64,000 nucleotides of DNA from a candidate division FCPU426 bacterium. Lineage in GTDB: Bacteria; Oederibacteriota; Muellerivitia; Muellerivitales; Muellerivitaceae. Location of the stretch: assembly GCA_963771075.1 (NCBI GenBank), contig CAVYSE010000018.1, forward strand, positions 108,551 to 172,550, in the 5' to 3' direction. The translations under genes were made by a program, and so were the position numbers. The notes below the pieces were generated by a model. It was not told the origin of the DNA. It was given only the letters and a program-made list of their open reading frames with translations, and searched no databases. Positions 33,481 to 62,714 of the stretch are shown here, in pieces; position 1 is the first letter of the stretch, and every line of letters starts with the position of its first letter.

Positions 33481-33502
33481 TCTCGACTTAAGGGAGCAAG
33501 AA

Positions 33503-46491: not shown

Positions 46492-46586
46492 AAATAAGAG
46501 CTTCAAGGGGAATTATTGTTTGCCGTTAAACCTGTATAATCCGGTGAAAATAAATTCCCCATTCTTCTAATGAACGGTAAGTCTCA

Positions 46587-49500
46587 ATGATGTGCAATAA
46601 ATGGAAATTTAAATCTGCTTTGGCATTAATATTCGTGTTCATTGTCACGCCCTCTGTTTTCGCGGATTGCCTTGTTTCGGATCAATTTAACAATGAAATC
46701 CTTCCGGCTTGGACAGCGCTCGATATTGGTACCGCCTCACTTGGTGTTACCTCTGTCGGTTCAGTCCTAACCATGACCAGCAATGACCCCGGTATGCCCG
46801 GCGGCGGGGGAACCACTTCGGATTCATTTTATTATCTTTATCAATCTTCCACTGGTGATCCGGAGGTTACACTCCAAATCGATTCGATGCCGGCCGCCAC
46901 CGGGGGCCGATTGGGGATCATGTTCCGAAATGGTATCCCGCCCGGGGATGTTTTCGCCTATGTTTTTGCCGCGACGACCGGGGCGGGCACGGGAAGTTTT
47001 AATACCATGTATAGGAATCCCGCGAATACCGGCAACCAAACATTAGGTACAGCGGCTGGGAATTGGACAACCGCGACTCTTCCGGTTTATGTACGGATGT
47101 CGAAGGCGGGCACGAATTTTGACGCTTATTTCTCGAACGACGGGAATACCTGGACGAGGTTTGCCAACATTGGCGTTGCAGGATTTACCGCATCTCCCTA
47201 TTTGGTGGGCATAGCCCTGGCTTCAGCGAATAATGTAGCGCCGGGCGACACAGGTTCGGTCGAAGATTTTAGCGTCATATCGGGTTACTGTACCCAAACC
47301 AACACACCGACTTTTTCCAGTACGACTACCCCGACCCAGACCCCCACACTCACGCCGACGATCACGAATACCGTGACCCTGACTCCGACGGTGACCTTGA
47401 CACCGACTGAGAGCTACACGATCACGCTTACGCCGACGATCACCGATACCGTGACCTTGACGCCAACGATCACGAATACGGAAACCCTGACTCCGACCAT
47501 CACGCCGACCTTCACGGCTACACCCACGGTAACGATGACCTATACGGTGACCCAGACGCCGCCGGTACTCAATATAGTTCGTGTGACGCCACCCGTGGAT
47601 GCGACGGTGATACCGGGAAGCCAGGGAGTGTCGGTGGTTCAAGTGAAAGTCAGCAACAACGATGGGGAGGGAGTGAACCTCAATTACGTGGTATTGCAGG
47701 CGACAGGGACGGGGGATTCGTTGCCGGTTAACGTCACGGCGGTGAATTTGTACAAGGGCTCAACCTTGTTGGCAAGTTCGACCTATTCGGGGACGTCGCC
47801 GAACGAATATGTCACCCTGGGAGGATTCCCGTTGGATGGGATAGGGGCGGGGTTATCGCAGAATTACATGATTACGTATGATTTCGCGGGTGGAGCGGGG
47901 TTGGGGACCTATGGGATGAACGTGGTTGGAGCGGGGGGGGTGGGACAAAGTACGGGACAACTGGTCCAGTTAACGGGGGTGCCGTTTGCGGGGGCAACGA
48001 TCATGGTGGCGGCGGCGACTCCCACACCAACCTTTACGGCGACGAGCAGTTTCACCTCTACATCGACCTGGACGGGTACCTCGACGCCGACGATCACCCT
48101 GACTCCGACGGTGACCCTGACGCCGACCCCGAGCTACACGATCACGCTTACCCCAACGATCACGAACACGGTGACCCTAACTCCGACGGTGACCTTGACG
48201 CCGACTGAGAGCTACACGATCACACTCACGCCGACGATCACGAATACCGTGACCCTGACCCCGACGGTGACTTTGACACCGACTGAGAGCTACACGATCA
48301 CGCTTACGCCGACGATCACCGATACCGTGACCTTGACGCCAACGATCACGAATACGGAAACCCTGACTCCGACCATCACGCCAACCTTCACGGCTACACC
48401 CACGGTAACGATGACCTATACGGTGACCCAGACGCCGCCGGTACTCAATATAGTTCGTGTGACGCCACCCGTGGATGCGACGGTGATACCGGGAAGCCAG
48501 GGAGTGTCGGTGGTTCAAGTGAAAGTCAGCAACAACGATGGGGAGGGAGTGAACCTCAATTACGTGGTATTGCAGGCGACAGGGACGGGGGAATCGTTGC
48601 CGGTTAACGTCACGGCGGTGAATTTGTACAAGGGCTCAACCTTGTTGGCAAGTTCGACCTATTCGGGGACGTCGCCGAACGAATATGTCACCCTGGGAGG
48701 ATTCCCGTTGGATGGGATAGGGGCGGGGTTATCGCAGAATTACATGATTACGTATGATTTCGCGGGTGGAGCGGGGTTGGGGACCTATGGGATGAACGTG
48801 GTTGGAGCGGGGGGGGTGGGACAAAGTACGGGACAACTGGTCCAGTTAACGGGGGTGCCGTTTGCGGGGGCAACGATCATGGTGGCGGCGGCGACTCCCA
48901 CACCAACCTTTACGGCGACGAGCAGTTTCACCTCTACATCGACCTGGACGGGTACCTCGACGCCGACGATCACCCTGACTCCGACGGTGACCCTGACGCC
49001 GACCCCGAGCTACACGATCACGCTTACCCCAACGATCACGAACACGGTGACCCTAACTCCGACGGTGACCTTGACGCCGACTGAGAGCTACACGATCACA
49101 CTCACGCCGACGATCACGAATACCGTGACCCTGACCCCGACGGTGACCTTGACACCGACTGAGAGCTACACGATCACACTTACGCCGACGATCACCGATA
49201 CCGTGACCTTGACGCCAACGATCACGAATACGGAAACCCTGACTCCGACCATCACGCCAACCTTCACGGCTACACCCACGGTAACGATGACCTATACGGT
49301 GACCCAGACGCCGCCGGTACTCAATATAGTTCGTGTGACGCCACCCGTGGATACGACGGTGATACCGGGAAGCCAGGGAGTGTCGGTGGTTCAAGTGAAA
49401 GTCAGCAACAACGATGGGGAGGGAGTGAACCTCAGTTACGTGATATTGCAGGCGACAGGGACGGGGGAATCGTTGCCGGTTAACGTCACGGCGGTGAATT

Positions 49501-52500
49501 TGTACAAGGGCTCAACCTTGTTGGCAAGTTCGACCTATTCGGGGACGTCGCCGAACGAATATGTCACCCTGGGAGGATTCCCGTTGGATGGGATAGGGGC
49601 GGGGTTATCGCAGAATTACATGATTACGTATGATTTCGCGGGTGGAGCGGGGTTGGGGACCTATGGGATGAACGTGGTTGGAGCGGGGGGGGTGGGACAA
49701 AGTACGGGACAACTGGTCCAGTTAACGGGGGTGCCGTTTGCGGGGGCAACGATCATGGTGGCGGCGGCGACTCCCACACCAACCTTTACGGCGACGAGCA
49801 GTTTCACCTCTACATCGACCTGGACGGGTACCTCGACGCCGACGATCACCCTGACTCCGACGGTGACCCTGACGCCGACCCCGAGCTACACGATCACGCT
49901 TACCCCAACGATCACGAACACGGTGACCCTAACTCCGACGGTGACCTTGACGCCGACTGAGAGCTACACGATCACACTCACGCCGACGATCACGAATACC
50001 GTGACCCTGACTCCAACAGTGACCTTGACGCCGACTGAGAGCTACACGATCACACTTACGCCGACGATCACCGATACCGTGACCTTGACGCCAACGATCA
50101 CGAATACGGAAACCCTGACTCCGACCATCACGCCAACCTTCACGGCTACACCCACGGTAACGATGACCTATACGGTGACCCAGACGCCGCCGGTACTCAA
50201 TATAGTTCGTGTGACGCCACCCGTGGATACGACGGTGATACCGGGAAGCCAGGGAGTGTCGGTGGTTCAAGTGAAAGTCAGCAACAACGATGGGGAGGGA
50301 GTAAACCTCAGTTACGTGATATTGCAGGCGACAGGGACGGGGGAATCGTTGCCGGTTAACGTCACGGCGGTGAATTTGTACAAGGGATCAACCTTGTTGG
50401 CAAGTTCGACCTATTCGGGGACGTCGCCGAACGAATATGTCACCCTGGGAGGATTCCCGTTGGATGGGATAGGGGCGGGGTTATCGCAGAATTACATGAT
50501 TACGTATGATTTCGCGGGTGGAGCGGGGTTGGGGACCTATGGGATGAACGTGGTTGGAGCGGGGGGGGTGGGACAAAGTACGGGACAACTGGTCCAGTTA
50601 ACGGGGGTGCCGTTTGCGGGGGCAACGATCATGGTGGCGGCGGCGACTCCCACACCAACCTTTACGGCGACGAGCAGTTTCACCTCTACATCGACCTGGA
50701 CGGGAACACCGACACCGACCATCACCCTGACACCGACGATCACCAATACCGTGACCTTAACCCCAACGATCACGAATACGGTGACCCTGACTCCGACAAT
50801 CACGAACACGGTGACCCTGACTCCAACAGTGACCCTGACACCGACGATCACCAATACCGTGACCTTAACCCCGACAATCACCAACACGGTGACCTTGACG
50901 CCGACAATCACGAATACAGTGACGAATACGCCGACCTTTACGCCGACCGTGACAAGCACTTGGACCTCGACCACGACTCCGACGGTGACTCCGACGGTGG
51001 GGCTGGCCTTGTCGTGGAACAATCTGCCCTCGCCGCAGAACTATTTGTTTAACCAGATAAACGTATCGAGTCTGCAGTTCGTATTGACGTCGACGGCGCA
51101 GGAGAATGTGCTGGTGAAACAGCTGGTGTTCACGGGCGGCGGGAGCGTGGGCTGGACCGGGGATGTGGTGGCGGGGAGCGTGAGGTTGTACCAGGACAAT
51201 TCACCGGGTTCCAATGGGTTGTATAACGCCGCCGATACGCTGTTGCTGGGAAGCCAAACCTTTGACTCAACGGGAGCGGTGACATTCACGAGCCTGTCGG
51301 GATTGACAAGCCTGGCGTCGGGAGCGCCGCAAACCTTCCTGCTGGTGTTTGACCTGAACATGGGGGGATTGGCGAGCAAGACTTTTGACAACGGGCTGGC
51401 CTTGGGAGGGATCACGGCGAACGGCCAGACGACGGGGCAGGGGGCGATCCTGACAGGTGCGAACATCACGGGGAAAACGCATACGATTTCACCGGTAACA
51501 GCCACGCCGACTTCCACGAATACGGTTACGCTCACGCCGACGACCACCAATACCGTAACCTTGACCCCGACGATCACGAACACAGTAACCCTGACTCCGA
51601 CGGTGACCTTGACGCCGACGATCACCAATACCGTGACCTTGACCCCGACGATCACGAACACGGTGACCCTGACACCGACGATCACCAATACCGTGACCTT
51701 AACCCCGACAATCACCAACACGGTGACCTTGACGCCGACAATCACGAACACGGTGACGAATACGCCGACCTTTACGCCGACCGTGACAAGCACTTGGACC
51801 TCGACCACGACTCCGACGGTGACTCCGACGGTGGGGCTGGCCTTGTCGTGGAACAACCTGCCCTCGCCGCAGAACTATTTGTATGACCAGGTTAACGTAT
51901 CGAGTCTGCAGTTCGTATTGACGTCGACGGCGCAGGAGAATGTGCTGGTGAAACAGCTGGTGTTCACGGGCGGTGGGAGCGTGGGCTGGACCGGGGATGT
52001 GGTGGCGGGGAGCGTGAGGTTGTACCAGGACTCGTCCTTGAACGGCTTGTATTCGGTTGGGGCCGATACCCTTTTGTTGGGAGGACAAAGCTTCAATGGA
52101 TCAGGTTCCGTGACCTTTCAAAACCCGAACGGAGTTACGGCTCCGTTGGTGTCGGGCATGCCGCAAACCTTCCTGCTGGTGTTTGATCTGAACATGGGGG
52201 GATTGGCGAGCAAGACTTTTGACAACGGGCTGGCCTTGGGAGGGATCACGGCGAACGGCCAGACGACGGGGCAGGGGGCGATCCTGGCAGGTGCCGACAT
52301 CACGGGGAAAACGCATACGATTTCACCGGTAACAGCCACGCCGACAGCGACCACCACCTTTACAACCACAGCGACTTCGACCGATACCATCACACCCACG
52401 CCGTCGGTCACGCAAACTCACACATCCACATTTACCTTCACCGAGACCCCGACTCCGACCCTTACCTTGACCTTTACCTCGACCTTCACGCCAACCGAGA

Positions 52501-54110
52501 CGGCCACGGCAACCTTTACCCCAACGCCGACTAATACGTCCACCTATACCGCGACATCTACCGCTTCTTTTACGGCTACCTTCACGCCAACCTTCACCTT
52601 CACGGTCACTCCCACACCCACCTTTACCATTCAGCCGCCTTCTTCCATCGTCGTCCTGCCCCAAACCGCCCCCGTAACGGCAGGGGGATATGCCTCGGTG
52701 ACCTTGGAGGTGTTAAATGGAGCAGGACAACCGGCTACCCTTGAAACGGCGATGACATTGAGTCTGAATTCAAACTCGACCGGAGAAAATGCCATTTGGT
52801 TGTCTCCATCGTCGAGTGGCACGACAATCAACTCCGTTAATTTTACGTCTGGGAGCGTCGCTCAAACCTTGGTTTATTACAGGGATGATCTAGCCGGGAA
52901 TTGGACTCTCACCGCATCTTCCTTCAACCTTGCTTATGGGACCATTAATGTGATTCCGGGCGCATTTATGAGCTTGCAAGTATTGCTGCCGGGTCAAACC
53001 GCCGATCCTGGTCATCCAACCGCGGATCCAATTGGAATACTGGGTAATCCTTCATCCGCTGTCGCAGGTTCCCCGGTTCAAGTTACGCTGAACGCGGTGG
53101 ACGCCTATTTCAACCGGGTTTTATCTATTGACGATCCATTAACCTTGACCCTCACCGATCCCGCGGCCCCGGCTGGCGGGACCGTGAATCTTTCGGGTGG
53201 AACGGCAATAAAACCTGTAACTTTTTATTCCCCTGGCAACCAAGCTGTCACTGCCACGGATACGGTTACTGGCCCCAAGACGGGTTCCAGCGGTTTATTA
53301 ACGATCCTGGGGGGGACAGCCAGCACCCTATTGGACATCGTTCATAATTCGCCAATCCTTTCCGGCGAAGGGTTGGGTGCGGTGGGTGTGACTTTCATGA
53401 ATTTCAAATTATCCGTTCAAAGCGGACAAAACCCGATCCGATTGGATAGCCTCACCCTGCATGCCAGGGATTCCTACGGCAATGATGTGCCCTTAGACAC
53501 CGCCTTTCAAAACCTTAAACTTATTTCCGGCCCACAAATTTTCATTTTGCCTCTGTCCTCAGTCAATACCGGGATCGTGAGTCTCGCTCCTTTGTCCGCT
53601 GGCATTACTTTTGACGTGGCAGCCGCCTCTCCCATCACCTTGAACCTGACGGGGGATATATCCTCCACCGCGACCGCCAGAAACATATCCCTTTCGGTGG
53701 ATGCTTCCGCCTCAGTCGTGGCGCATGATCCCGTTTCAGCAGTTTCGGCGGCGGTTGTGGCGACGGGAGATCCCACTGGGTTCCCTATGGTCTCAGGCTT
53801 GCTTGTATTGGAGCCTTCGGATGTATCTAAAACTTATGGAAATTATCCTAATCCCTTCCGTCCGGGGATCGAAAACACGACTATTGAATTTTATTTACCC
53901 GCGCCCTCCTCCGTTTCGTTGATTTTGTACGATGTGTTAGGAAACAAGGTTTTAACCCTTTTGAAAGGCCAAAACCTACCTACGGGCCTACAGCGCTTAG
54001 TTTGGGACGGCCGTAACGGTTCAGGTGCCCCGGTGATTAGCGGTATTTATTACGCCCAACTTACGGTAAATGGGACAAGCTACCTAGTGAAAGTGGCGGT
54101 GGTCCGATGA
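46587..54110 (+). CDS. Giant (2507 aa) secreted adhesin-like protein. Contains an N-terminal lectin/LamG-like domain, 4 near-identical Ig-like modules, 2 modules of a second type, further Ig-like regions and a FlgD-Ig/T9SS-like C-terminal domain.
   Basis: Signal peptide (LALIFVFIVTPSVFA). The N-terminal domain carries YVRMSKAGTNFDAYFSNDGNTWTRF. Repeated modules PVLNIVRVTPPVD...GATIMVAAATPT are separated by TPT linkers. Two modules read VGLALSWNNLPSPQNYL...GKTHTISPVTATPT. The C-terminal domain reads NYPNPFRPG..VSLILYDVLGNKVLTLL..LVWDGRNGSGAPVISGIYYAQL..VKVAVVR. Confidence 0.9.
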   Translation: MMCNKWKFKSALALIFVFIVTPSVFADCLVSDQFNNEILPAWTALDIGTASLGVTSVGSVLTMTSNDPGMPGGGGTTSDSFYYLYQSSTGDPEVTLQIDSMPAATGGRLGIMFRNGIPPGDVFAYVFAATTGAGTGSFNTMYRNPANTGNQTLGTAAGNWTTATLPVYVRMSKAGTNFDAYFSNDGNTWTRFANIGVAGFTASPYLVGIALASANNVAPGDTGSVEDFSVISGYCTQTNTPTFSSTTTPTQTPTLTPTITNTVTLTPTVTLTPTESYTITLTPTITDTVTLTPTITNTETLTPTITPTFTATPTVTMTYTVTQTPPVLNIVRVTPPVDATVIPGSQGVSVVQVKVSNNDGEGVNLNYVVLQATGTGDSLPVNVTAVNLYKGSTLLASSTYSGTSPNEYVTLGGFPLDGIGAGLSQNYMITYDFAGGAGLGTYGMNVVGAGGVGQSTGQLVQLTGVPFAGATIMVAAATPTPTFTATSSFTSTSTWTGTSTPTITLTPTVTLTPTPSYTITLTPTITNTVTLTPTVTLTPTESYTITLTPTITNTVTLTPTVTLTPTESYTITLTPTITDTVTLTPTITNTETLTPTITPTFTATPTVTMTYTVTQTPPVLNIVRVTPPVDATVIPGSQGVSVVQVKVSNNDGEGVNLNYVVLQATGTGESLPVNVTAVNLYKGSTLLASSTYSGTSPNEYVTLGGFPLDGIGAGLSQNYMITYDFAGGAGLGTYGMNVVGAGGVGQSTGQLVQLTGVPFAGATIMVAAATPTPTFTATSSFTSTSTWTGTSTPTITLTPTVTLTPTPSYTITLTPTITNTVTLTPTVTLTPTESYTITLTPTITNTVTLTPTVTLTPTESYTITLTPTITDTVTLTPTITNTETLTPTITPTFTATPTVTMTYTVTQTPPVLNIVRVTPPVDTTVIPGSQGVSVVQVKVSNNDGEGVNLSYVILQATGTGESLPVNVTAVNLYKGSTLLASSTYSGTSPNEYVTLGGFPLDGIGAGLSQNYMITYDFAGGAGLGTYGMNVVGAGGVGQSTGQLVQLTGVPFAGATIMVAAATPTPTFTATSSFTSTSTWTGTSTPTITLTPTVTLTPTPSYTITLTPTITNTVTLTPTVTLTPTESYTITLTPTITNTVTLTPTVTLTPTESYTITLTPTITDTVTLTPTITNTETLTPTITPTFTATPTVTMTYTVTQTPPVLNIVRVTPPVDTTVIPGSQGVSVVQVKVSNNDGEGVNLSYVILQATGTGESLPVNVTAVNLYKGSTLLASSTYSGTSPNEYVTLGGFPLDGIGAGLSQNYMITYDFAGGAGLGTYGMNVVGAGGVGQSTGQLVQLTGVPFAGATIMVAAATPTPTFTATSSFTSTSTWTGTPTPTITLTPTITNTVTLTPTITNTVTLTPTITNTVTLTPTVTLTPTITNTVTLTPTITNTVTLTPTITNTVTNTPTFTPTVTSTWTSTTTPTVTPTVGLALSWNNLPSPQNYLFNQINVSSLQFVLTSTAQENVLVKQLVFTGGGSVGWTGDVVAGSVRLYQDNSPGSNGLYNAADTLLLGSQTFDSTGAVTFTSLSGLTSLASGAPQTFLLVFDLNMGGLASKTFDNGLALGGITANGQTTGQGAILTGANITGKTHTISPVTATPTSTNTVTLTPTTTNTVTLTPTITNTVTLTPTVTLTPTITNTVTLTPTITNTVTLTPTITNTVTLTPTITNTVTLTPTITNTVTNTPTFTPTVTSTWTSTTTPTVTPTVGLALSWNNLPSPQNYLYDQVNVSSLQFVLTSTAQENVLVKQLVFTGGGSVGWTGDVVAGSVRLYQDSSLNGLYSVGADTLLLGGQSFNGSGSVTFQNPNGVTAPLVSGMPQTFLLVFDLNMGGLASKTFDNGLALGGITANGQTTGQGAILAGADITGKTHTISPVTATPTATTTFTTTATSTDTITPTPSVTQTHTSTFTFTETPTPTLTLTFTSTFTPTETATATFTPTPTNTSTYTATSTASFTATFTPTFTFTVTPTPTFTIQPPSSIVVLPQTAPVTAGGYASVTLEVLNGAGQPATLETAMTLSLNSNSTGENAIWLSPSSSGTTINSVNFTSGSVAQTLVYYRDDLAGNWTLTASSFNLAYGTINVIPGAFMSLQVLLPGQTADPGHPTADPIGILGNPSSAVAGSPVQVTLNAVDAYFNRVLSIDDPLTLTLTDPAAPAGGTVNLSGGTAIKPVTFYSPGNQAVTATDTVTGPKTGSSGLLTILGGTASTLLDIVHNSPILSGEGLGAVGVTFMNFKLSVQSGQNPIRLDSLTLHARDSYGNDVPLDTAFQNLKLISGPQIFILPLSSVNTGIVSLAPLSAGITFDVAAASPITLNLTGDISSTATARNISLSVDASASVVAHDPVSAVSAAVVATGDPTGFPMVSGLLVLEPSDVSKTYGNYPNPFRPGIENTTIEFYLPAPSSVSLILYDVLGNKVLTLLKGQNLPTGLQRLVWDGRNGSGAPVISGIYYAQLTVNGTSYLVKVAVVR
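47345..50705. repeat. Near-identical 876-bp (292-aa) in-frame tandem repeat, about 3.8 copies.
   Basis: caccgactgagagctacacgatcacgcttacg occurs at 47401 and 48277 (offset 876). Antisense ORF sets at 47223/48177/49053/49929 and 47909/48785/49661/50537 repeat at 876 bp. Only a handful of substitutions between copies are visible (for example GDS vs GES, NLNYVV vs NLSYVI). Confidence 0.92.
50710..52345. repeat. 834-bp (278-aa) in-frame tandem repeat, 2 copies, more diverged than the 876-bp array.
   Basis: atcaccaataccgtgaccttaaccccgacaatcaccaacacgg occurs at ~50849 and ~51683, and cacggggaaaacgcatacgatttcaccggtaacagccacgccgac at 51467 and 52301 (offset 834 in both cases). Confidence 0.88.
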
Positions 54111-55759
54111 AGACACTGTTCCTTTACATTTTGACCGGCTTTTACACCCTATTCTTCCTAGGGACGGGGGTCCCCATGGTTTGGGGCCAAAGCGCCGAAA
54201 CCGGAGGAATGGTCGACCCGTTCGAATTGGGTGCGTCGGCCAGGGTCCTGGCCATGGGTGATGCTGGTGTGGCCTTGGCCGGGGATGGTGGAGCGGCCCT
54301 TCTCAACCCGGCATTGCTGGCGACCGTCAACCAGAATGATCTCCTGATGTTCCATGCGCCTCTTTTTATCGACACGCTTTATGACAGCGTCGGTTTTGTC
54401 CAACCTCTTACGGGATCCTCCGGCTTTGCCCTGAGTCTTTCGCGTTTGGGGATCGATAATATTTTGCAAACCCAAAACAATATCGTGGCGGTATCCACTT
54501 TCTCGACCCAAGAATGGGAGGCGACCCTAAGCCTGGGGGCGGAGGTTGTACCCGGCTTGGGTATGGGAATCCAGATGAAAGGAATTCAAGAGCAAATCTC
54601 CCTTTACCAAGGGGAGGGCGTAGGGATGGACGCCGGGTTGATTTATCGGTTCGCCCAATCCGAATCGGACTATTCCAAAATCGGACTTCCAAACCTCGTT
54701 CTCGGTATCGCGGCCGTGAATCTTATTTCCCCTCAAATCACCCTTTATCAGACCGGCAGCCAGCCCTCTGAAATCATCAAACCTTCGGTGGGTTTTCTCT
54801 ATGATATCTCCCCTCACGGCGACCGGTTATGGCTTGCGATGGAGGGAGAGATGACCCAGGGAGGAAGCAATCTTGTAAAGGCGGGGGCCGAGTATACTTT
54901 TCAGGGCAATTTTTCCCTCAGGGCTGGGTTTGACGGGGTGAGTCCCACGGCTGGAGGAGGCGTGAGCTTGTCGGGTTTTGAGCTGGATTATGCCTACAAC
55001 CAAAGGGACTTGGGAACCCTTAACCGGTTGTCCCTATCCTACCGCTTCGGGGAATATATCGATCCGGTACAAGCCCAAAAAAGGGAGATGTTAAACGAAA
55101 GGCTGAGCCTGCTTAAATGGGTTGCCCAAAGCTACGAAAAGGACGAGGATTACGACGCCGCGATCAAAGCCTGGAACAATGTTTTAAAAGAATACCCCGA
55201 CGACGCCGAATCGTCCAAGTCCATCCAAAGTTTGAAGGACCGCCGCCATCAACAGGTGGAAGCCCTTATGAAACAAGCCCGTCCCGCCATGCAAAAAGGT
55301 GATTATGTGAGAGGAATACCCATTTTAGGAAAGGTGCTGGCTTTGGAGCCTGGCAATACCGAAGCCCGCAACATGCTTAAACACGTCGACCAGGGAAGGC
55401 AGTTGGAAACCGCTTATTTGGCCGGGGTCGAGGCTTACCGCCACGAAAATTACCGGGAAGCCATGGATTACCTGGAGGGCATTTACGACACCAATCCGGA
55501 TTACCGGGACGTGGCATTGCTCTACCGTGACGTCCAAAGCCGTATTCAGCCCCTGGAATCCCTTCCCAAGGACCTTTCCGATCTCTATGCCAAGGGTGTG
55601 GACGCTTACATGAAGGGCCAATATTCCGGGGCCATTTCCCTATGGCAGCAGGTCCTGGCCAAAGATCCTCGAAACCGGCTAGTGGCCAGGAACTTAGAAG
55701 AAGCCCGGGGCCACTTGGCCGATCCCACCCCCACACCCCAAGTGAAGAGTGCCCCTTGA
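54107..55759 (+). CDS. PorV/PorQ/UPF0164-like outer-membrane beta-barrel fused to a C-terminal TPR domain.
   Basis: The ATG overlaps the giant gene's stop (ATGA). Signal peptide, DPFELGASARVLAMGDAGVALAGDGGAALLNPALLA and the barrel end FELDYAYNQRDLGTLNRLSLSYRF. TPR-like units follow (YEKDEDYDAAIKAWNNVLKEYPDD, GDYVRGIPILGKVLALEPGN, ENYREAMDYLEGIYDTNPDY, GQYSGAISLWQQVLAKDPRN). Confidence 0.7.
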   Translation: MKTLFLYILTGFYTLFFLGTGVPMVWGQSAETGGMVDPFELGASARVLAMGDAGVALAGDGGAALLNPALLATVNQNDLLMFHAPLFIDTLYDSVGFVQPLTGSSGFALSLSRLGIDNILQTQNNIVAVSTFSTQEWEATLSLGAEVVPGLGMGIQMKGIQEQISLYQGEGVGMDAGLIYRFAQSESDYSKIGLPNLVLGIAAVNLISPQITLYQTGSQPSEIIKPSVGFLYDISPHGDRLWLAMEGEMTQGGSNLVKAGAEYTFQGNFSLRAGFDGVSPTAGGGVSLSGFELDYAYNQRDLGTLNRLSLSYRFGEYIDPVQAQKREMLNERLSLLKWVAQSYEKDEDYDAAIKAWNNVLKEYPDDAESSKSIQSLKDRRHQQVEALMKQARPAMQKGDYVRGIPILGKVLALEPGNTEARNMLKHVDQGRQLETAYLAGVEAYRHENYREAMDYLEGIYDTNPDYRDVALLYRDVQSRIQPLESLPKDLSDLYAKGVDAYMKGQYSGAISLWQQVLAKDPRNRLVARNLEEARGHLADPTPTPQVKSAP

Positions 55760-58170
55760 ATTTAAAACAGATCTACCTACGCATTGCGGCTCGTATGACG
55801 CCGGATTCCAAAAGGCGGCATTTTAAATTGGAGGTCCCCGCACAGGAATTGGAACTCCTGACAATCAAAGATTTTGTACAGCGGGTTTGCGATTCCGCGG
55901 GATGCTCCCAAAAGGAAACCTCTGGATTTAAGCTGGCCATCGATGAGGCTTGTACCAATATCATCCGACATGCTTACCAGGGAAAAAGCGACGGGAAAAT
56001 CAAGGTGGAGATGGGTATCGGCCTGGCCGACCTGAAAACAACCATCACGGATTATGGCAAGCCCTTCGATTTTAATTCGGTCCAAGATCCCGACCTCAAC
56101 CATTACGTGGAGATTGGTAAAAAAGGGGGGCTGGGGATTTGGCTGATCCGCAAAGTTATGTCCCGGGTTTCCTATAAGGCTTATCCCGACCGCAATGAAT
56201 TGGTGATGTACCGGCGTTTATCCAACGCTCCGCCCCAACAGCTGGGATTGAAAAAGGGTGCGGTCTCGGTTTCAGTTAAGTTCACGATTGGGGCGGTGGC
56301 CTTAGTGGCGATTCTTTTCGTGACCTTTTATTTCTCCCTGAGTCACCGGCGGGAGGAGGAAGGCTTCCGGCACCAGAGGGAATACGTGAATTTGATCCTT
56401 GGGTCCTTGGCTTCCGAGTCCGGATCAGGGGTTTCCCGCAAGGACAACCTTGGGATGGAAAACCTCATACGCCAGGTGAAGGCCCAGGACGCGGGCAGGT
56501 CGCTTGATTACATCTTTATCGTCGGTTTGGACGGCGTTTTCCTGGCCCATACCGACCTTCGACAAATTCTCAGGCCCTATGCGCGTCCGCCTGGGGAAAA
56601 ATTCAATCCCAAGGGGGGGATCCAGGTCTTCCAACTTCAAACTACGGAAGGAAAAGTGAGTGATTCCATCGCACCCATTTATTACAAGGGACAGGTGGTG
56701 GGAGAGGTGCATGTGGGGGTGGAGGGAAAGACCATTCGAGAGGCCACCCGGCAGATCGAAAACGAATTGCGAAACCAGCTTTTAGCCGCTTCCTTGTTCA
56801 TGATGGTACTACTCTGGCTTCTGTCCCGAATTATCATCCAGCCTTTCCGGAAGATTTTGATGGGGGTCAACGCCGTTTCCTCTGGAAATCTGGACGCGAA
56901 AATTGAGATCGACACCCAGGATGAGTTTGGACAATTGGCGGGCATTTTCAATGAAATGACCAATAAGCTCCAGGAATCCCAAAAGGGGATGATGGAGCAA
57001 GAACGCATGCAAAAGGAAATGCAGGTCGCTCAGCAGATCCAACACACCCTTTTGCCGGCCGATTTCCCCCAGATTGAGGGGTATGAGATCGGCGCTACCT
57101 ACCGGTCCGCGAAGGAGGTGGGGGGGGATTACTACGATTTCTTCTGGGTGGACCCGACTACCCTGGGTATCGTAGTGGCCGACGTTTCGGGCAAAGGAGT
57201 GCCTGGTTCCATGGTGATGACCATGATCCGGACGGCTATGCGCCTGGAGGCCCGCGGCAACAAGAGCGCCTCGGACACCCTCTCCAAGGTCAACCGGCAT
57301 GTGACCTCGGATATGAAACGGGGGATGTTCGTCACAATGTTTTACATCATCCTGGATTCCCGGACGCGGGCGATCAATTTCGCCAGCGCGGGCCATAACC
57401 CCATGATTCTTTACCGGGGTAAAACCAAGGAAGTCTACTTTCTCAAACCGAAGGGATTCCCGGTGGGCATAGACCTTCCGGAGGAGGAGATGTTCACCCG
57501 CAACCTAGCCCTGCAGAAAATTCAACTGGAAAAAAACGATATGCTGGTCATCTATACGGACGGGATTACCGAGGCGATGAATCCTGAAAAAGCCCAATTC
57601 GGGGAAACCCGGTTGGTGCAAGTCATCAAGGAAAATTCCCACCTGACACCCCAGGAATTTGTGGAGCAGTTAAATTTGGCCATCGCCCAGTTCACCCGGG
57701 GGGCGGAACAAAACGATGACATCACGGTGGTGGCGATCAAGGAGAAAATGAAGGCCGAGTCGGTGGAGTTCAAGTTCAGAAAGAACCTTTTGGACCTCGT
57801 AGAGAAGAAGGGGCTGTCCGTGATCGAGGCATGCCGCCAAATGAACGTCTCGACCAAAGCGTATTATCGATTCAAAAAGATGGTGACGGACAAAGGCCGG
57901 GCCAGCTTGAAGCCCACCCGGTCCCAGCGTAACAGCGATATCCGCGAATTGACGATACCCCAAAAGGAAGCTTTGATGACCTTGTTGTGCAAGAACCCCG
58001 AATTCGGACCCCAAAGGCTCTCACAGGCTTTGAAGAAGCTGACCCCCCCTGTTCGAGTGGAGTCGAGTCTCATCTACGATCACTTGAAGCGGAAGAGTTT
58101 AAGTACGGTCAATCAAAGGAAAGCCTTCGCTGCCATCTCGGTTGACAGCGAGAAAGCCGGAAGCCCATAA
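55756..58170 (+). CDS. Multidomain signalling protein: RsbW/SpoIIAB-like HATPase kinase domain, TM, extracytoplasmic region, TM, HAMP, PP2C (SpoIIE/RsbU-type) phosphatase and a C-terminal transposase-type HTH region.
   Basis: The TTG at 55756 overlaps the upstream stop (TTGA). An alternative ATG is at 55795. Kinase domain: KLAIDEACTNIIRHAY...GKKGGLGIWLIRKVMSRV. HAMP: IIQPFRKILMGVNAVSSGNLDAKIEIDTQDEFGQLAGIFNEMTNKL (~56834-56980). PP2C: AQQIQHTLLP..GGDYYDF..VADVSGKGVPGSMVM..YTDGITEA..DDITVVAIK (~57022-57741). Tail: LSVIEACRQMNVSTKAYYRFKK..PTRSQRNS..IPQKEALMTLLCKNPEFGPQRLSQALKK..SSLIYDHLKRKSL (~57780-58170). Confidence 0.8.
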   Translation: MNLKQIYLRIAARMTPDSKRRHFKLEVPAQELELLTIKDFVQRVCDSAGCSQKETSGFKLAIDEACTNIIRHAYQGKSDGKIKVEMGIGLADLKTTITDYGKPFDFNSVQDPDLNHYVEIGKKGGLGIWLIRKVMSRVSYKAYPDRNELVMYRRLSNAPPQQLGLKKGAVSVSVKFTIGAVALVAILFVTFYFSLSHRREEEGFRHQREYVNLILGSLASESGSGVSRKDNLGMENLIRQVKAQDAGRSLDYIFIVGLDGVFLAHTDLRQILRPYARPPGEKFNPKGGIQVFQLQTTEGKVSDSIAPIYYKGQVVGEVHVGVEGKTIREATRQIENELRNQLLAASLFMMVLLWLLSRIIIQPFRKILMGVNAVSSGNLDAKIEIDTQDEFGQLAGIFNEMTNKLQESQKGMMEQERMQKEMQVAQQIQHTLLPADFPQIEGYEIGATYRSAKEVGGDYYDFFWVDPTTLGIVVADVSGKGVPGSMVMTMIRTAMRLEARGNKSASDTLSKVNRHVTSDMKRGMFVTMFYIILDSRTRAINFASAGHNPMILYRGKTKEVYFLKPKGFPVGIDLPEEEMFTRNLALQKIQLEKNDMLVIYTDGITEAMNPEKAQFGETRLVQVIKENSHLTPQEFVEQLNLAIAQFTRGAEQNDDITVVAIKEKMKAESVEFKFRKNLLDLVEKKGLSVIEACRQMNVSTKAYYRFKKMVTDKGRASLKPTRSQRNSDIRELTIPQKEALMTLLCKNPEFGPQRLSQALKKLTPPVRVESSLIYDHLKRKSLSTVNQRKAFAAISVDSEKAGSP

Positions 58171-58209
58171 TGACACATCTTTCGGCCCTTTTCCTTATTT
58201 GGAGGAACC

Positions 58210-58572
58210 ATGGATAACATCACGGTCAGCGTTGCCGACCATTCCAATCATAAAGATATTGTTGTTTTAACGGTCAAGGGTTTCATTGACACCACGACCG
58301 CACCGGAATTCGAGAAAAAGTTCCTGGGGGTATTGAGCGATAAGAAATATAAGTTGATTGTCGACTTGAAAGATGTCAATTACATCAGTTCCGCTGGGTG
58401 GGGAATCTTCATCAGCGAAATCAAGCGCATCCGGTCCCAAAAAGGGGACCTCATTTTGGTGGGAATGAACCCCGAAGTAAGCGAGGTTTTTGAGCTTTTG
58501 GAGTTCAATTCCATCCTGAAGTCCTTTCCCAGCGTGGATCTGGGGCTCAAAAAAGGCTTCGATAAAGCGTAA
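58210..58572 (+). CDS. STAS-domain anti-sigma-factor antagonist (RsbV/SpoIIAA-like).
   Basis: VVLTVKGFIDTTTAPEFEKKF...LIVDLKDVNYISSAGWGIFISEI...GDLILVGMNPEVSEVFELLEFNSIL. GGAGG lies upstream of the start. Confidence 0.82.
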   Translation: MDNITVSVADHSNHKDIVVLTVKGFIDTTTAPEFEKKFLGVLSDKKYKLIVDLKDVNYISSAGWGIFISEIKRIRSQKGDLILVGMNPEVSEVFELLEFNSILKSFPSVDLGLKKGFDKA

Positions 58573-58653
58573 AGGAGCGTTCGGATGGGACGCGCTCTCC
58601 TCAAACGGTGCGTGTCTTAATCTCAGGATTTGAAGATCCGAGAAACGGAAACT

Positions 58654-59385
58654 ATGGAAAGCAATACCCTCAACTCACTTCTTGATATCAATGGCAAACA
58701 TTTCACGGTTGAAACCAGCTTGGCCCAGGGCAAGAACCGGGTTCTTTCCGTGGCTCAATTAGATGGAAGAATTCTTTCCCAGCGTGAATTTGAGTTACCC
58801 GAGGGTCTGGATGAGGATGGCAAGAAGCGGTTCAACCAGGAAACCCATAAAAACCGGCTTGTAGAGTTGGAGTCCATTTTTCGACTGAACCGGAAGATCG
58901 ATGAAAAGCCGACGCCTGACGCCTGCTGGAAAATCGGCGTAATCCTGATGTCGAATGGCTTTTATGAGGATGCCCGCCAGCGTTTTTTGAAGGCCATGGA
59001 AATGGATCCCCAGCATCTGCAGGCCCTCAAATGTTACGGTATCAACCTGACCCTGCTGGATGATTACGAAGCCGCTTTGGCTATTCTGAACCATGCACGG
59101 GAATTGGGCCCCTCCTTTGCCGACATTTATTACCACCTGGGAAATGTTCATCTTTACCGAAGGGAACTGGACGAGGCTGTCCAATCCTATCTCCAAGCTC
59201 TCCAAATCAATCCCCGCTACGCGGATGCCAGGCTTCGTTTGGCCACCGCTTGCGTTGGCTATTTAACTATCGGCGATTTGAGTGTCAGTGACGGCGGCAA
59301 AACGGCCGAGTTGGCGGAAAGAGCCAAGGCGGAGGCCGAAACGGCGGCGACATTAAACCCTAAACTTCGGAACGGTCCTTCATGA
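58654..59385 (+). CDS. TPR-repeat protein.
   Basis: TPR units WKIGVILMSNGFYEDARQRFLKAMEMDPQH, YYHLGNVHLYRRELDEAVQSYLQALQINPRY. An alternative TTG start is at 58630. Confidence 0.65.
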   Translation: MESNTLNSLLDINGKHFTVETSLAQGKNRVLSVAQLDGRILSQREFELPEGLDEDGKKRFNQETHKNRLVELESIFRLNRKIDEKPTPDACWKIGVILMSNGFYEDARQRFLKAMEMDPQHLQALKCYGINLTLLDDYEAALAILNHARELGPSFADIYYHLGNVHLYRRELDEAVQSYLQALQINPRYADARLRLATACVGYLTIGDLSVSDGGKTAELAERAKAEAETAATLNPKLRNGPS

Positions 59386-59795
59386 TGGCGACCGACTATC
59401 TGAAGAGCCGCAGGTTCTCAAACGCCTTCCAGACCTTTTTGGAAGTGCGGCCGCGGTTCGTTCCCCGGATCGGGGATGAAATTATTTTTTTCTTCACCTT
59501 GACGCTTCTCTATGGCAGCGAGGGGATTGACCTGCAAATGACCGAGCAATACATCGAGAAGTTATCCAAAGTAATCGAGGAATATCCCCATTACGCGGAC
59601 CTGCACCACCATTTGGGCGTTGCCTACCTCATTAAGTGCCGTTTCGACGTCAGCCGATCGCTCAAGGAATTTAAAAAGGCCTTAACCATCAACCCGCAAT
59701 TCCAAAAAGCCCTGAACAACGCCGAGGATACTGAGGAATTGCATCGCCGGGTCTTGGTCTCGTTGAAAAAGGCCATTATTTCAAAAGGGAATTAA
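59382..59795 (+). CDS. Small TPR-like protein.
   Basis: ATGA overlap with the preceding gene. HHHLGVAYLIKCRFDVSRSLKEFKKALTINPQF. Confidence 0.55.
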   Translation: MMATDYLKSRRFSNAFQTFLEVRPRFVPRIGDEIIFFFTLTLLYGSEGIDLQMTEQYIEKLSKVIEEYPHYADLHHHLGVAYLIKCRFDVSRSLKEFKKALTINPQFQKALNNAEDTEELHRRVLVSLKKAIISKGN

Positions 59796-59839: not shown

Positions 59840-60223
59840 TTAAGCCTCAGGCACGGGCGTCAAAGAGTAGTTTTTCTCCAAAAACCCGACATGATCCGCC
59901 GAGGGGTTATCGAAATTGACACCGTAAGCGTACCGGCCCATGGTTTTCATGGGGTTTTTCCGGGCCCAAACGACTTTTCCCGGGAAGGTCATGGCGTGGC
60001 TTCCATCCAAGGAATCCAGTTCGAGACTCAGGTTCGTTTTCTCGACCATGGTCTTGTTGGAGTAGATTTGGGCTCCGGTCGAGCTGATGTTGACTAGGTG
60101 GGCCCGAAAGACATCGGTCTGGTTTGAGTTTAATAGACGGCCTTTGATGGATTTCACCATCACGACCCTATTGTTATTGGTCCGTTTGAACGTTTCGGGA
60201 TTAGGCCGGGGAATCTTTTTCAT
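59840..60223 (-). CDS. PilZ-like domain protein (putative c-di-GMP receptor).
   Basis: The internal ATG at 60223 has GGAG upstream. The N-x-S-x-x-G motif (VNISSTGAQI) is present and the beta-barrel-like remainder ends in YAYGVNF. The N-terminal arginine motif is RTNNNR (Rx4R rather than RxxxR). Confidence 0.55.
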   Translation of the reverse strand: MKKIPRPNPETFKRTNNNRVVMVKSIKGRLLNSNQTDVFRAHLVNISSTGAQIYSNKTMVEKTNLSLELDSLDGSHAMTFPGKVVWARKNPMKTMGRYAYGVNFDNPSADHVGFLEKNYSLTPVPEA

Positions 60224-62617: not shown

Positions 62618-62691
62618 TTGGGAGATCGTCTAACGGTAGGACAGCAGATTCTGGATCTGCTTATCTAGGTTCGAGTCCTAGTCTCCCAGCC
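62618..62691 (+). tRNA. tRNA-Gln (anticodon CUG), CCA encoded.
   Basis: The 74-nt cloverleaf folds by hand. Acceptor: tgggaga/tctccca. D arm: gtct-aacggta-ggac. Anticodon arm: gcaga-ttCTGga-tctgc. Variable loop: ttat. T arm: ctagg-ttcgagt-cctag. Discriminator g, then cca. The U1-A72 pair and overall similarity fit bacterial tRNA-Gln. Confidence 0.9.
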
Positions 62692-62714
62692 ATTTTTTAT
62701 CATTAACATTAATT

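Follow-up and report, generated by a model that had tools for sequence, protein, structure and literature searches.

A giant surface protein and its PorV-like barrel are recurrently encoded beside a partner-switching sensor

Why should the gene for a membrane-bound kinase and phosphatase directly follow those for a giant surface protein and an outer-membrane barrel? The question arises at a locus within a 64-kb window, the whole stretch of DNA analysed here, for which an earlier reading made from the letters alone (the sequence-only reading) had proposed one six-gene operon: an adhesin, a barrel–TPR protein, a kinase/phosphatase, a STAS protein and two TPR proteins. All module ORFs lie on the + strand, where that reading had placed them.

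Genes of the locus

The features are as follows (coordinates, strand, identity, evidence).

46492..46586, +, intergenic leader of the giant gene with a perfect TATAAT at about 46537-46542 (candidate promoter only)
46587..54110, +, giant secreted surface protein, 2507 aa (ORF, repeats, signal-peptide-like hydrophobic N-terminus, conserved C-terminal region)
53814..54107, +, C-terminal sorting domain (CTD) of the giant protein, ending LVKVAVVR (TIGR04183, FlgD_ig)
54107..55759, +, PorV/PorQ-family outer-membrane barrel with TPR arm (NF033709, Pfam TPR, AF2 model, PDB fold match)
55756..58170, +, fused sensor kinase/phosphatase, 804 aa from TTG (Pfam, NCBIfam, homologue alignment, AF2)
58142..58171, +, sigma-70-like promoter candidate for the STAS-TPR unit, TTGACA-18-CATAAT (conservation)
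58210..58572, +, single-domain STAS protein of the anti-sigma-antagonist type, 120 aa (Pfam STAS, TIGR00377)
58654..59795, +, one cytoplasmic TPR protein gene, about 380 aa in relatives (uninterrupted ORF of relatives)
59840..60223, -, convergent PilZ-domain gene, 127 aa from the likely start ATG 60223 (Pfam PilZ)

The giant protein opens with a hydrophobic, signal-peptide-like Sec signal and an N-terminal domain of ~210 aa, followed by four near-identical repeats of ~292 aa and two more of ~278 aa set apart by Thr/Pro-rich linkers. Its C-terminal region of ~490 aa is conserved within the lineage and terminates in a T9SS type-A sorting domain (27.4 bits against TIGR04183 Por_Secre_tail, cutoff 23; 26.4 bits against FlgD_ig), the sole part of the protein still recognisable in other phyla. 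The name adhesin is unproven: no adhesin family matched the protein, which gave only the type-A/FlgD_ig CTD and a sub-threshold hint of DUF1349 at the N-terminus. In the leader upstream, the context TTTGCCGTTAAAnCTGTATAAT is common to locus L001 and the TATAAT is also present in L087; no Rfam element was found in 46492..46586.

The stop codon of the giant gene overlaps the start of the next gene (ATGA at 54107-54110), as had been described. What was previously called a barrel belongs to the PorV/PorQ family, with 14 strands and a TPR arm in the periplasm. The barrel domain occupies residues ~40-315 with 14 predicted strands, and the arm, which gives Pfam TPR matches, is a predicted periplasmic stretch of ~220 residues (~320-538) forming 10 helices. 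The protein scores 97.1 bits against NF033709 PorV_fam (cutoff 90) and falls well below the equivalog cutoffs of PorV, PorQ and PorV2. Its AF2 model (pLDDT 78) has 14 strands and 10 helices; the top PDB fold match is 8gl6_F from the SprA translocon complex (E=2e-12), with FadL next. Pfam UPF0164, a treponemal family, also matches barrels of this kind. Three pairs of CTD-cargo and barrel genes are present in the window, and the other pairs have no regulator.

The third gene encodes a transmembrane sensor with the order kinase-TM-Cache-TM-HAMP-PP2C-HTH. An RsbW-like GHKL kinase (~20-153) is followed by TM1 (177-195), a periplasmic sCache domain (196-342), TM2 (343-361), HAMP and a coiled coil, and then by a PP2C/SpoIIE phosphatase (467-662) and an IS481-like HTH (674-789). 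The two TM helices, the sCache and HAMP domains and the HTH had all been missed before. The Cache domain is predicted to lie in the periplasm, as is the TPR arm of the barrel. Sequence matches in the PDB are RsbW (6m36), RssB, Rv1364c and SiaA, and the AF2 model (pLDDT 79.5) matches the folds of SiaA-PP2C (TM 0.81), Rv1364c and SpoIIAB. The N-box, the G-box and the PP2C Asp residues are invariant among homologues. Scores against family models are low, at 71 bits for the NCBIfam SiaA model (cutoff 700) and below cutoff for the RsbW models.

Barrel and sensor are translationally coupled through an in-frame TTGA at 55756-55759, as first reported, and the 4-nt overlap recurs in L001, L002, L004 and L087. 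The TTG start is matched exactly by homologue N-termini (P0018 MNLNPFIY, P0001 MKLDRLFQ and P0002, which starts with GTG). Two other starts, ATG 55642 (longer) and ATG 55795, were rejected, as homologue N-termini do not align there.

After the 39-nt gap and GGAGG (58201-58205) noted earlier, the STAS gene starts at ATG 58210. Its product scores 75.6 bits against Pfam STAS and 76.3 bits against TIGR00377. The candidate phospho-acceptor is Ser61 in YISSAGWG, which aligns with the phospho-serine of RsbV and SpoIIAA; SSAGWG is kept in the alignable cluster-linked STAS domains of several phyla. The parts of a partner switch recognised at the outset (RsbW-type kinase, PP2C, STAS) are thus present with conserved catalytic and phospho-acceptor motifs.

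The supposed pair of TPR genes with an ATGA junction proved to be a single gene, which a 1-nt deletion near 59370 (AACCGG to AACGG) breaks in the window into two ORFs, 58630-59385 and 59382-59795. Relatives carry a single ORF of 379-380 aa in which LNPKLRN-RSFMMATDYL is read through. Since gltX, ~2 kb downstream, is likewise frameshifted, the split is likely an indel error of the assembly. The true start is ATG 58654, and TTG 58630 was rejected. Neither a TM segment nor a signal peptide was detected in this TPR protein. The gene is present in those lineage loci that reach far enough downstream, except L095, and also in L007, L009, L013 and L015; in several phyla it is absent or displaced.

The convergent PilZ assignment was borne out (46.9 bits). 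The gene is present only in close relatives (L001, L002, L004, L087, L089, L090, L093 and L102) and missing from L005, L006 and all other phyla; judged by this gene content, it is a neighbour outside the module core.

Linkage across phyla and transcription of the module

The order giant CTD protein, PorV-like barrel with TPR arm, sensor phosphatase/kinase and, usually, STAS protein was seen in ~36 loci spanning at least seven named phyla and the window's own lineage. Wherever upstream sequence is available for a full-length sensor orthologue, the barrel gene immediately precedes it and is itself preceded by the gene for a CTD protein. These loci come from the window's lineage (L001-L006, L087) and from Latescibacterota, Eisenbacteria, Calditrichia, KSB1 and Ignavibacteria. 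The linkage is reciprocal: among metagenome loci of barrel-TPR orthologues, the sensor adjoins in 16/16 of those with downstream sequence and a CTD protein lies upstream in 17/17. In the negative control, loci holding only generic PP2C relatives, the barrel was found in 0/57. The genes around the core change from lineage to lineage (gltX and PilZ in one, acetate kinase or histidine kinases in others), so inherited synteny by itself does not account for the core. The proposed coupling of the circuit to a surface protein and its outer-membrane partner is borne out by this recurrence, and the core order is conserved in related genomes.

The switch itself varies in form. A split version, with sensor PP2C, STAS and a separate RsbW, has the same neighbours in Spirochaetia, Ignavibacteriales, Zixibacteria and others, and Rosetta-stone fusions of 1380-1400 aa join the sensor to several STAS domains in Latescibacterota and Krumholzibacteria. 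In the sub-lineage L095-L097 no STAS gene adjoins the sensor. The split sensors lack the HTH, which therefore cannot be the universal output. The cluster is also found in a Spirochaetia MAG, from a group not known to have a T9SS.

Whether the row is one operon is a separate matter. The promoter candidate before the STAS gene agrees with consensus at 11/12 positions, its -35 box lying inside the last conserved sensor codons and its -10 box overlapping the sensor stop codon. It is conserved in 12/12 lineage loci examined, independently of the reading frame (codon control), and no terminator hairpin was found at the sensor/STAS junction in the window. A conserved promoter directly before the STAS gene means that STAS and TPR are probably also transcribed separately. 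Of the six-gene operon, the recurring linkage stands; the genes number five, and the promoter next to STAS is set against a single unit. Read from gene order and promoter conservation, the five genes probably form one module, and a single transcript is unlikely. The sequence-only reading had named what would speak against it, namely independent promoters or terminators with no co-occurrence of the genes, or a sensor starting at ATG 55795 with its own promoter and found elsewhere without adhesin neighbours. Neither is borne out in full: a promoter candidate does precede STAS, but the TTG start is right and the sensor orthologues never occur without their neighbours.

Proposed signalling and its alternatives

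In our preferred reading, to which we give a probability of about 0.6, a T9SS-type cargo/anchor pair is joined to a partner switch of the SypE/RsbUVW kind, so that the module would span the envelope and the Cache domain would read the state of the surface. One half would be the cargo/carrier pair: Sec would export the giant protein, the type-A CTD would take it across or onto the outer membrane, and its own PorV/PorQ-family barrel, whose gene lies directly downstream with an overlapping start, would keep it at the surface. The other half would be the switch, in which the inner-membrane RsbW-like serine kinase and the PP2C, flanking the periplasmic Cache sensor and HAMP, would set STAS phosphorylation at Ser61. 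The Cache domain may read either the barrel's TPR arm in the periplasm or the cargo CTD in transit, and whether the surface protein has been made, anchored, loaded or lost would then shift the balance of kinase and phosphatase. Unphosphorylated STAS could bind the kinase domain and so alter the action of the sensor HTH, of the cytoplasmic TPR protein, or of both, most likely as feedback on expression or handling of the surface protein. The protein–protein contacts, the direction of signalling and the output are all ones that we infer. There is precedent for a cargo CTD as periplasmic ligand of an inner-membrane sensor in PorA and PorY (PMC12152298). The recurrence across phyla suggests that a protein at the cell surface is tied to a phospho-switch inside the cell in a way not described before; we found no paper that describes coupling of a T9SS-type cargo/anchor pair to a partner switch.

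Cache domains usually bind small molecules, and the sensor may read a soluble ligand instead of the TPR arm or CTD. Control could then run from the inside out, which we consider possible but rather unlikely: the STAS switch would regulate production, export or display of the giant protein, no physical signal would pass from barrel to sensor, and the linkage would place a regulator beside its target. Small ligands are typical of Cache/HAMP sensors, chlamydial RsbU has a periplasmic ligand-binding domain (PMC11619594), and the SypE/SypA and SiaABCD switches steer biofilm formation or aggregation without a sigma factor (PMC3610818). The similarity to SiaA (NCBIfam) and the SiaA-PP2C fold match point the same way, and the conserved HTH could act on the cluster's own promoters. 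Adhesin export or display, the output first suggested, is thus one possibility among several, and the reverse direction and an HTH output fit the anatomy at least equally well. Inside-out control does not account, however, for the restriction of the periplasmic TPR arm to this barrel subfamily, or for the translational coupling of barrel and sensor, which hints at matched amounts or a complex; nor does it sit well with the window's unregulated cargo/barrel pairs or with split sensors devoid of an HTH.

A classical sigma switch, in which the RsbW-like domain would keep a sigma factor from elsewhere in the genome sequestered (as for Bacillus sigma-B or Chlamydia sigma-66) and the surface-protein genes merely belong to, or adjoin, its regulon, seems improbable. 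In its kinase domain the sensor most resembles RsbW and SpoIIAB, and the STAS protein is closest to RsbV and SpoIIAA. In line with the sequence-only reading, no sigma factor was found among the major ORFs scanned in the window; as this search covered 64 kb, the genome may encode one farther away. However, none of the ~36 loci has a sigma gene within 10 kb of the cluster, the surface-protein pair is always present, and a kinase tethered to the membrane within an 804-aa sensor would be unusual for such an anti-sigma factor. Chance or lineage-specific adjacency of unrelated genes has a negligible probability. Close relatives alone would not prove function, since the wider neighbourhood in the window's lineage (S8 protease, second barrel, UDG, gltX, acetyltransferase) is syntenic too, but the core order persists across at least seven named phyla whose flanks differ, whether the module is fused or split and whether the search ran forward or in reverse, and the barrel linkage is absent from the 57 control loci.

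Comparison with known systems

FecA-FecR-FecI signalling relies on a barrel in the outer membrane whose periplasmic extension passes word of a surface event to a regulator in the inner membrane. The likeness to our preferred reading is one of analogy only, as the families (TonB-dependent transducer, anti-sigma, ECF sigma) are entirely different. Closer in structure are Treponema pallidum TP0548, TP0859 and TP0865, 14-strand FadL-family barrels with a presumptively periplasmic helical TPR extension at the C-terminus, for which the paper describing them reports no further FadL member in Pfam (PMC8407342); these proteins have no reported linkage to CTD proteins or partner switches.

The T9SS barrels PorV (8gl6, PMC10994853), PorQ-PorZ and PorV-PorU share the FadL-like 14-strand PorV/PorQ-family fold, and PorP/SprF-type shuttles encoded beside type-B CTD cargo (PMC9143113, PMC12618676) make cognate cargo-shuttle pairs an established theme. 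The CTD here is of type A, however, and in Bacteroidota CTDs of that type share one general PorV instead of each having a dedicated neighbour. The module barrel also differs from T9SS carriers in its C-terminal periplasmic TPR arm and in failing the PorV, PorQ and PorV2 equivalog cutoffs; its lineages lie mostly outside Bacteroidota, and no known shuttle gene is coupled to a partner switch. In Porphyromonas gingivalis, PorA and PorY combine a CTD as periplasmic ligand with an inner-membrane sensor that regulates T9SS genes (PMC7712824, PMC12152298), but PorY is a histidine kinase feeding PorX and SigP rather than a Ser kinase/phosphatase acting on STAS, no TPR-bearing barrel takes part and the genes are arranged otherwise.

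On the side of the switch, Rv1364c of Mycobacterium tuberculosis (PDB 3ke6) unites sensor, PP2C, RsbW kinase and STAS in one chain, comparable to the 1380-1400-aa fusions, but is cytoplasmic, with a PAS sensor, the phosphatase before the kinase and no envelope partners. RsbU-RsbV-RsbW (chlamydial RsbU having a periplasmic sensor, PMC11619594) and SiaABCD of Pseudomonas aeruginosa combine a TM PP2C phosphatase, STAS and a GHKL kinase, the three-gene form of the module's split versions, and SiaA-PP2C is the best fold match of the sensor. Unlike them, the module has no linked sigma factor (Rsb) or diguanylate cyclase (SiaD), and none of them is linked to an outer-membrane barrel or CTD protein. 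SypE-SypA of Vibrio fischeri (PMC3610818, PMC4517449, PMC10120452) likewise has an N-terminal RsbW-like serine kinase and a C-terminal PP2C in one polypeptide, a single-domain STAS target of both activities, independence from sigma and a place within a surface/biofilm locus. SypE, however, is a cytoplasmic protein whose central REC domain takes its input from a phosphorelay, whereas the sensor described here has a TM-Cache-TM-HAMP middle and a C-terminal HTH; and where the SypE locus concerns polysaccharide, the structure linked here is a T9SS-type protein/barrel pair.

Gene boundaries and transcription of the module

The ORF table reproduced the gene coordinates of the sequence-only reading, including the two ORFs after the STAS gene and the convergent ORF ending at 59840.

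Genes of the module in the window
46587-54110, + strand: giant protein (2507 aa) with a C-terminal sorting domain (CTD) of the type IX secretion (T9SS) type
54107-55759, + strand: outer-membrane barrel with a TPR arm (550 aa)
55756-58170, + strand: sensor, a fused RsbW-like kinase/PP2C phosphatase (804 aa)
58210-58572, + strand: STAS protein (120 aa)
58630-59385 and 59382-59795, + strand: two ORFs of one cytoplasmic TPR gene

The giant-gene stop overlaps the barrel start as ATGA (54107-54110), and the barrel stop overlaps the in-frame TTG start of the sensor as TTGA (55756-55759). A 39-nt gap then leads to the STAS gene, which has a GGAGG seven bases 5' of its ATG. The TTG start proposed for the sensor was borne out by alignment with 12 homologues, whose N-termini begin exactly at this codon (MNLNPFIY in P0018, MKLDRLFQ in P0001, and P0002 with GTG). 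Both other starts are ruled out by these N-termini, namely ATG 55795, which the sequence-only reading had named as a threat to its operon, and ATG 55642, the longest ORF of the mechanical ORF list, with a 118-nt overlap with the barrel gene. The 4-nt barrel/sensor overlap is also annotated in four related loci (L001, L002, L004 and L087). The giant, barrel and sensor genes, which overlap in this way, are probably co-transcribed and translationally coupled. No terminator was found at the junctions in the window: the two overlaps leave no room for one, and the sensor-STAS junction has no stable hairpin (z=-0.06); among the relatives, a strong hairpin lies between these genes in L087 only. An Rfam search detected no riboswitch 5' of the giant gene and a single RNA gene in the window, a tRNA-Gln (CTG) at 62619-62692.

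A near-consensus sigma-70-like promoter candidate, TTGACA-18-CATAAT, lies just 5' of the STAS gene (58142-58171). On its own it means little, since the total of promoter-like and terminator-like sites in the window shows no excess over shuffled sequence, and its weight comes solely from a conservation test. All 12 lineage loci examined (the window, L001, L002, L004, L005, L006, L087, L089, L090, L093, L098 and L102) carry TTGAC[A/G]-17/18-NATAAT, 23-64 nt 5' of the STAS start. As a codon control, a single codon was kept in 0/12 invariant Val and 0/15 invariant Asp columns of the sensor; GTTGAC was kept in all 12 loci. The motif is also kept independently of the reading frame: in L004 the sensor stop falls within the -35 box, in the window it falls within the -10 box, and in L093 the sensor ORF runs through both boxes. 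The conserved -35 box accounts for the odd 'VD' that ends the otherwise variable tail of the sensor, which is probably its by-product.

The proposal that all these genes form one operon therefore stands in part: the overlapping genes at its start probably share a transcript, but a conserved promoter candidate precedes STAS, and the PilZ gene falls outside. Independent promoters or terminators at the junctions, with no co-occurrence in relatives, had been named as evidence against it; a promoter candidate is present before STAS, terminators are absent from the junctions in the window, and the co-occurrence holds. We conclude that the five genes are one conserved module, and that STAS and the TPR protein are served by at least one promoter within it.

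The two TPR genes described as joined by ATGA are a single gene, as both halves match one 379-392-aa ORF in every relative. By tblastn the window gene changes frame between ...LNPKLRN and RSFMMATDYL, where relatives have CGAAACCGGG and the window has CGGAACGGT, with one base missing. The essential gltX, 2 kb downstream of the TPR gene, is also split over two frames, and GltX of L001 aligns to it in two frames. Relative to close relatives there are thus two frameshifts less than 2.5 kb apart (~59370 in the TPR gene and ~61640 in gltX), for which an indel-prone assembly is the simplest explanation. True pseudogenisation of the TPR gene is less likely, since an essential gene is frameshifted too. 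Three overlapping same-strand ORF pairs elsewhere in the window may be further frameshifts (17393-18802/18027-19100, 14180-14830/14709-15236 and 32015-33010/32902-33450).

Domains of the surface pair and of the switch

The barrel passes the NCBIfam PorV/PorQ family model NF033709 (97.1 vs a cutoff of 90 bits) and fails the equivalog models for PorV (35 vs 250 bits), PorQ (57.6 vs 220) and PorV2 (56 vs 325). On sequence grounds it is a PorV/PorQ-family member and no orthologue of PorV, PorQ or PorV2. In an AF2 model (pLDDT 78), 14 strands precede 10 helices, consistent with a 14-strand FadL-like fold. Its best PDB fold match is 8gl6_F of the T9SS SprA translocon complex (367 aa, E=2e-12, TM 0.62), which we take to be PorV from its chain length and family; FadL and TodX come next. 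The arm of ~220 residues is foreign to the PorV, PorQ and PorV2 families. Given the even number of strands, this C-terminal TPR arm is predicted to be periplasmic, in the same compartment as the Cache domain of the sensor. The earlier description of a barrel-TPR gene is accordingly retained, with a family identity added to it. A homologue search with the barrel returned 22 proteins only, probably because TPR words dominated the word filter; this was offset by the metagenome locus scan described below.

The last 536 residues of the giant protein match TIGR04183 (Por_Secre_tail) at 27.4 bits against a cutoff of 23, and the C-terminus also matches FlgD_ig (26.4 bits). A hydrophobic N-terminus ending ...VFA/DC has the features of a Sec signal, and with this signal and the CTD the protein has the sequence marks of a type-A cargo. 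A Lys lies six residues from its C-terminus, a position at which Lys is a type-A CTD trait (PMC10994853). The label 'adhesin' was not upheld: the CTD is the one part recognised, and no family match marks the protein as an adhesin. Neither its repeats nor its N-terminal domain matched a family; searches with the N-terminal 245 residues returned no homologues, the PDB sequence search with this domain found no match, and Pfam on five internal segments gave nothing beyond a sub-threshold DUF1349 (E=0.028). An 876-nt unit occurs four times in the gene, at ~92% identity, and an 834-nt unit occurs twice. Repeat copy number varies among relatives: their giant proteins are 483 to ~2250 aa long, with the last ~490 aa conserved. 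No SprA/Sov or PorKLMN translocon genes were found within the 64-kb window.

The 'kinase/phosphatase' does contain both enzyme domains, but it is far more than a two-enzyme fusion.

Domains of the sensor, from N- to C-terminus
Residues ~20-153: HATPase_c_2 (RsbW-like) kinase
Residues 177-195: TM helix 1
Between the two TM helices: sCache_3_2, periplasmic (44.8 bits)
Residues 343-361: TM helix 2
After the second TM helix: HAMP (49.5 bits)
Between HAMP and SpoIIE/PP2C: coiled coil
Residues 467-662: SpoIIE/PP2C phosphatase
C-terminus: conserved DNA-binding region, related to the IS481 transposase N-terminus (NCBIfam E=3e-12; Pfam HTH_29, HTH_32)

The kinase domain scores 86.8 bits with Pfam HATPase_c_2 (cutoff 27.4), matches RsbW in the PDB (6m36, E=3e-13) and has SpoIIAB fold matches at TM 0.71-0.75. 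The phosphatase domain scores 166.7 bits with Pfam SpoIIE, and a fold search with the sensor model returned the SiaA PP2C domain (TM 0.81), Rv1364c, RssB, SpoIIE and SpoIIAB. The N-box and G-boxes of the kinase (E63, N67, H71, D98, G100, G123-G126) and the PP2C aspartates (D457, D460, D475, D601, D653, D654) are invariant in 34 sensor homologues. No REC domain was matched, the centre of the protein consisting of TM, sCache_3_2, TM and HAMP. More than 100 homologue clusters share this architecture at 41-81% identity; the nearest named relatives, from Firestonebacteria, Krumholzibacteria and Latescibacterota, are 41-45% identical.

The STAS protein was identified by Pfam STAS (75.6 bits) and TIGR00377 (76.3 bits vs a cutoff of 53.45). 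It aligns with RsbV and SpoIIAA, and Ser61, at the position of the RsbV phospho-serine, is the predicted phospho-acceptor. The motif YISSAGWG is conserved among alignable cluster-linked STAS domains, and its Ser-Ser pair is invariant, including in the multiple STAS domains fused to some sensors. Kinase, PP2C phosphatase and single-domain STAS protein with its conserved serine thus have the sequence features of a partner switch. Sensor-STAS fusions of 1380-1470 aa provide independent evidence that the two proteins work together. Sensors with three fused STAS domains occur in Latescibacterota and Krumholzibacteria (L007 9977-14383, L009 9908-14239, P0076, P0087 and others; 1380-1405 aa), where two further single STAS genes follow the TPR gene; such a fusion unites all the components of a partner switch, with several substrates, in a single polypeptide.

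Conservation of gene order across phyla

For six sensor homologues (long contigs) and 80 relatives (one-genome-per-species contigs), the gene neighbourhood was collected and all its ORFs were scored with the window proteins. Every full-length sensor orthologue with upstream sequence has the barrel directly upstream and a large CTD protein before it.

Loci with CTD protein, barrel and sensor in this order
Window lineage: L001-L006, L087
Latescibacterota: L007
Eisenbacteria: L008, L026
Calditrichia: L010-L012, L014
KSB1: L013
Ignavibacteria: L015, L022
MAGs: L009, L044, L046

In Spirochaetia (L024), Ignavibacteriales (L022), Zixibacteria (L025) and the locus L044, the switch is divided over several genes, for a ~550-aa sensor PP2C, STAS and a ~150-aa RsbW; in all four, the giant CTD protein and the barrel keep their place directly upstream. 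In the Spirochaetia MAG, a 1709-aa CTD protein and a barrel-TPR protein are followed directly by genes for an RsbW-like protein, sensor PP2C, STAS and a second RsbW-like protein (L024 6806-9659); this lineage is not known to have type IX secretion. The flanks vary: close relatives have PilZ, gltX and an acetyltransferase there, L006 has acetate kinase, and histidine kinases or DUF4159/DUF4175 are found elsewhere. The latter two genes follow the module in Calditrichia. DUF4159/DUF4175 genes often accompany Bat/MoxR-type clusters, and the window has such a cluster at 27849-35493 (DUF58, VWA, VWA, TPR, MoxR AAA_3). Three sensor relatives lack the upstream barrel (L019, L020, L023), and L095-L097 lack a STAS gene after the sensor.

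In the reverse direction, a scan of metagenome contigs with the barrel-TPR alignment yielded 18 loci. The sensor lies directly downstream of the barrel in all those with downstream sequence (16/16), and a CTD protein directly upstream in 17/17. No barrel match was found in 57 loci with a generic PP2C only (0/57). The proposed coupling of the circuit to a surface protein and its outer-membrane partner is thus upheld at the level of gene linkage. The order of giant CTD protein, barrel and sensor is kept across phyla, as the suggested conservation check had asked; the PilZ gene, convergent and confined to close relatives, was dropped from the module.

Two distant barrels follow large cargo without a switch (L088, 24% identity with a TPR arm; L106, 25% identity and no TPR arm). 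The window itself has two more switch-less pairs, 32-5659 with 5656-7545, and an S8 protease (42952-44625) with 44622-45617. Both cargo proteins are secreted and CTD-bearing, and the cargo stop/barrel start overlaps are GTGA and ATGA. One of these barrels has an fn3 domain and UPF0164/DUF5723 matches; the partner of the S8 protease best matches the 'PorV2' model. Together with the reverse scan, these pairs indicate that a cargo with a dedicated PorV-like barrel is the general unit, and that one barrel subfamily, that with the TPR arm, is specifically tied to the partner switch. Another secreted protein, of 1276 aa (35749-39579), carries DUF4082, a T9SS-type CTD and long linkers rich in Thr/Pro; it is followed by a YicC-like gene and not by one for a barrel.

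Proposed mechanism and known systems

PorZ and PorU are retained at the surface by PorQ and PorV via their uncleaved CTDs. PorV surface loops bind type-A CTDs, and PorV carries cargo away from the translocon (PMC10994853); type-B cargo has dedicated PorP/SprF shuttles encoded alongside (PMC9143113; PMC12618676). By analogy with these roles, the dedicated barrel next to the giant type-A CTD protein most plausibly carries or anchors that protein. On a far-reaching reading, to which we give a probability of about 0.3, the module would be a new cell-surface signalling device, in which the barrel would hold the giant protein by its CTD and the TPR arm would report occupancy or mechanical load to the Cache-HAMP kinase/phosphatase, and so to STAS phosphorylation. 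In our preferred reading, the sensor would read the state of cargo and barrel via the TPR arm or a CTD in transit, and this would shift its kinase/phosphatase balance, which in turn would set the ratio of STAS-P to STAS. Binding of STAS to the kinase domain could then change how active the C-terminal HTH is, or the conserved cytoplasmic TPR protein, or both, and so exert feedback control. These two are our inferred candidates for the switched target; the HTH was dropped as a universal output, as split versions lack it. There is a precedent for such outside-in reading: in the periplasm, the sensor PorY has the CTD of PorA as a ligand (PMC12152298).

The chief alternative is an inside-out model, in line with the adhesin export or display that the sequence-only reading had proposed as the output: a soluble ligand would bind to the Cache domain, and the switch would govern how the surface protein is made or displayed. 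The data are compatible with either direction. A nearby sigma factor as the target, the usual output of such circuits, is argued against by the data: as had been noted for the window, there is no sigma gene near, either there or in the relatives' loci (up to 8-10 kb on each side where the contig allows). The data likewise argue against chance adjacency of the module genes, given the linkage found in both scan directions and the empty control loci.

The signalling device, if real, would be the counterpart of FecA-FecR signalling in a system that relies on serine phosphorylation and partner switching and is built from T9SS parts. It would occur in many phyla that have been little studied, among them lineages in which no T9SS translocon is known. 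A full-text literature search for work linking partner switching to T9SS or to PorV-like proteins turned up no such paper. The novelty lies in the coupling of a partner switch to a CTD/barrel kit, conserved across phyla, and in the fused sensor with its Cache/HAMP/HTH architecture. The gene order survives in Latescibacterota, Eisenbacteria, Calditrichota, KSB1, Ignavibacteria, Zixibacteria and Spirochaetia as well as in the window lineage; some carrier phyla have cultivated members, and the module may be amenable to the bench. Pairs of T9SS cargo and carrier have been described almost exclusively in Bacteroidota, and PorV-like barrels with dedicated type-A cargo prove to be widespread outside it.

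Partner switches without a sigma factor are known (SypE/SypA, SiaABCD, HsbR/HsbA), with inputs and outputs that are mostly obscure, and in this module one particular giant surface protein, with its anchor, is a concrete candidate for the input or output of such a switch, and one that can be tested. The switch would work like SypE/SypA (PMC3610818), where a single polypeptide is both kinase and phosphatase, its substrate is a STAS protein, a sigma factor is not involved and the genes lie in a surface-structure locus. The N-terminal kinase and C-terminal PP2C of the sensor, with a STAS gene 39 nt downstream, follow the SypE pattern, and phosphotransfer is predicted; unlike SypE, the sensor is without the receiver domain that defines that protein. 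The split forms resemble chlamydial RsbU/V/W or SiaABC, with scores far below those family cutoffs. Finally, the TPR arm of the barrel is reminiscent of helical extensions, so far unexplained, on three FadL-like proteins of Treponema pallidum (PMC8407342), and the module suggests a possible role for such TPR extensions on FadL/PorV-like barrels, those of Treponema pallidum included.
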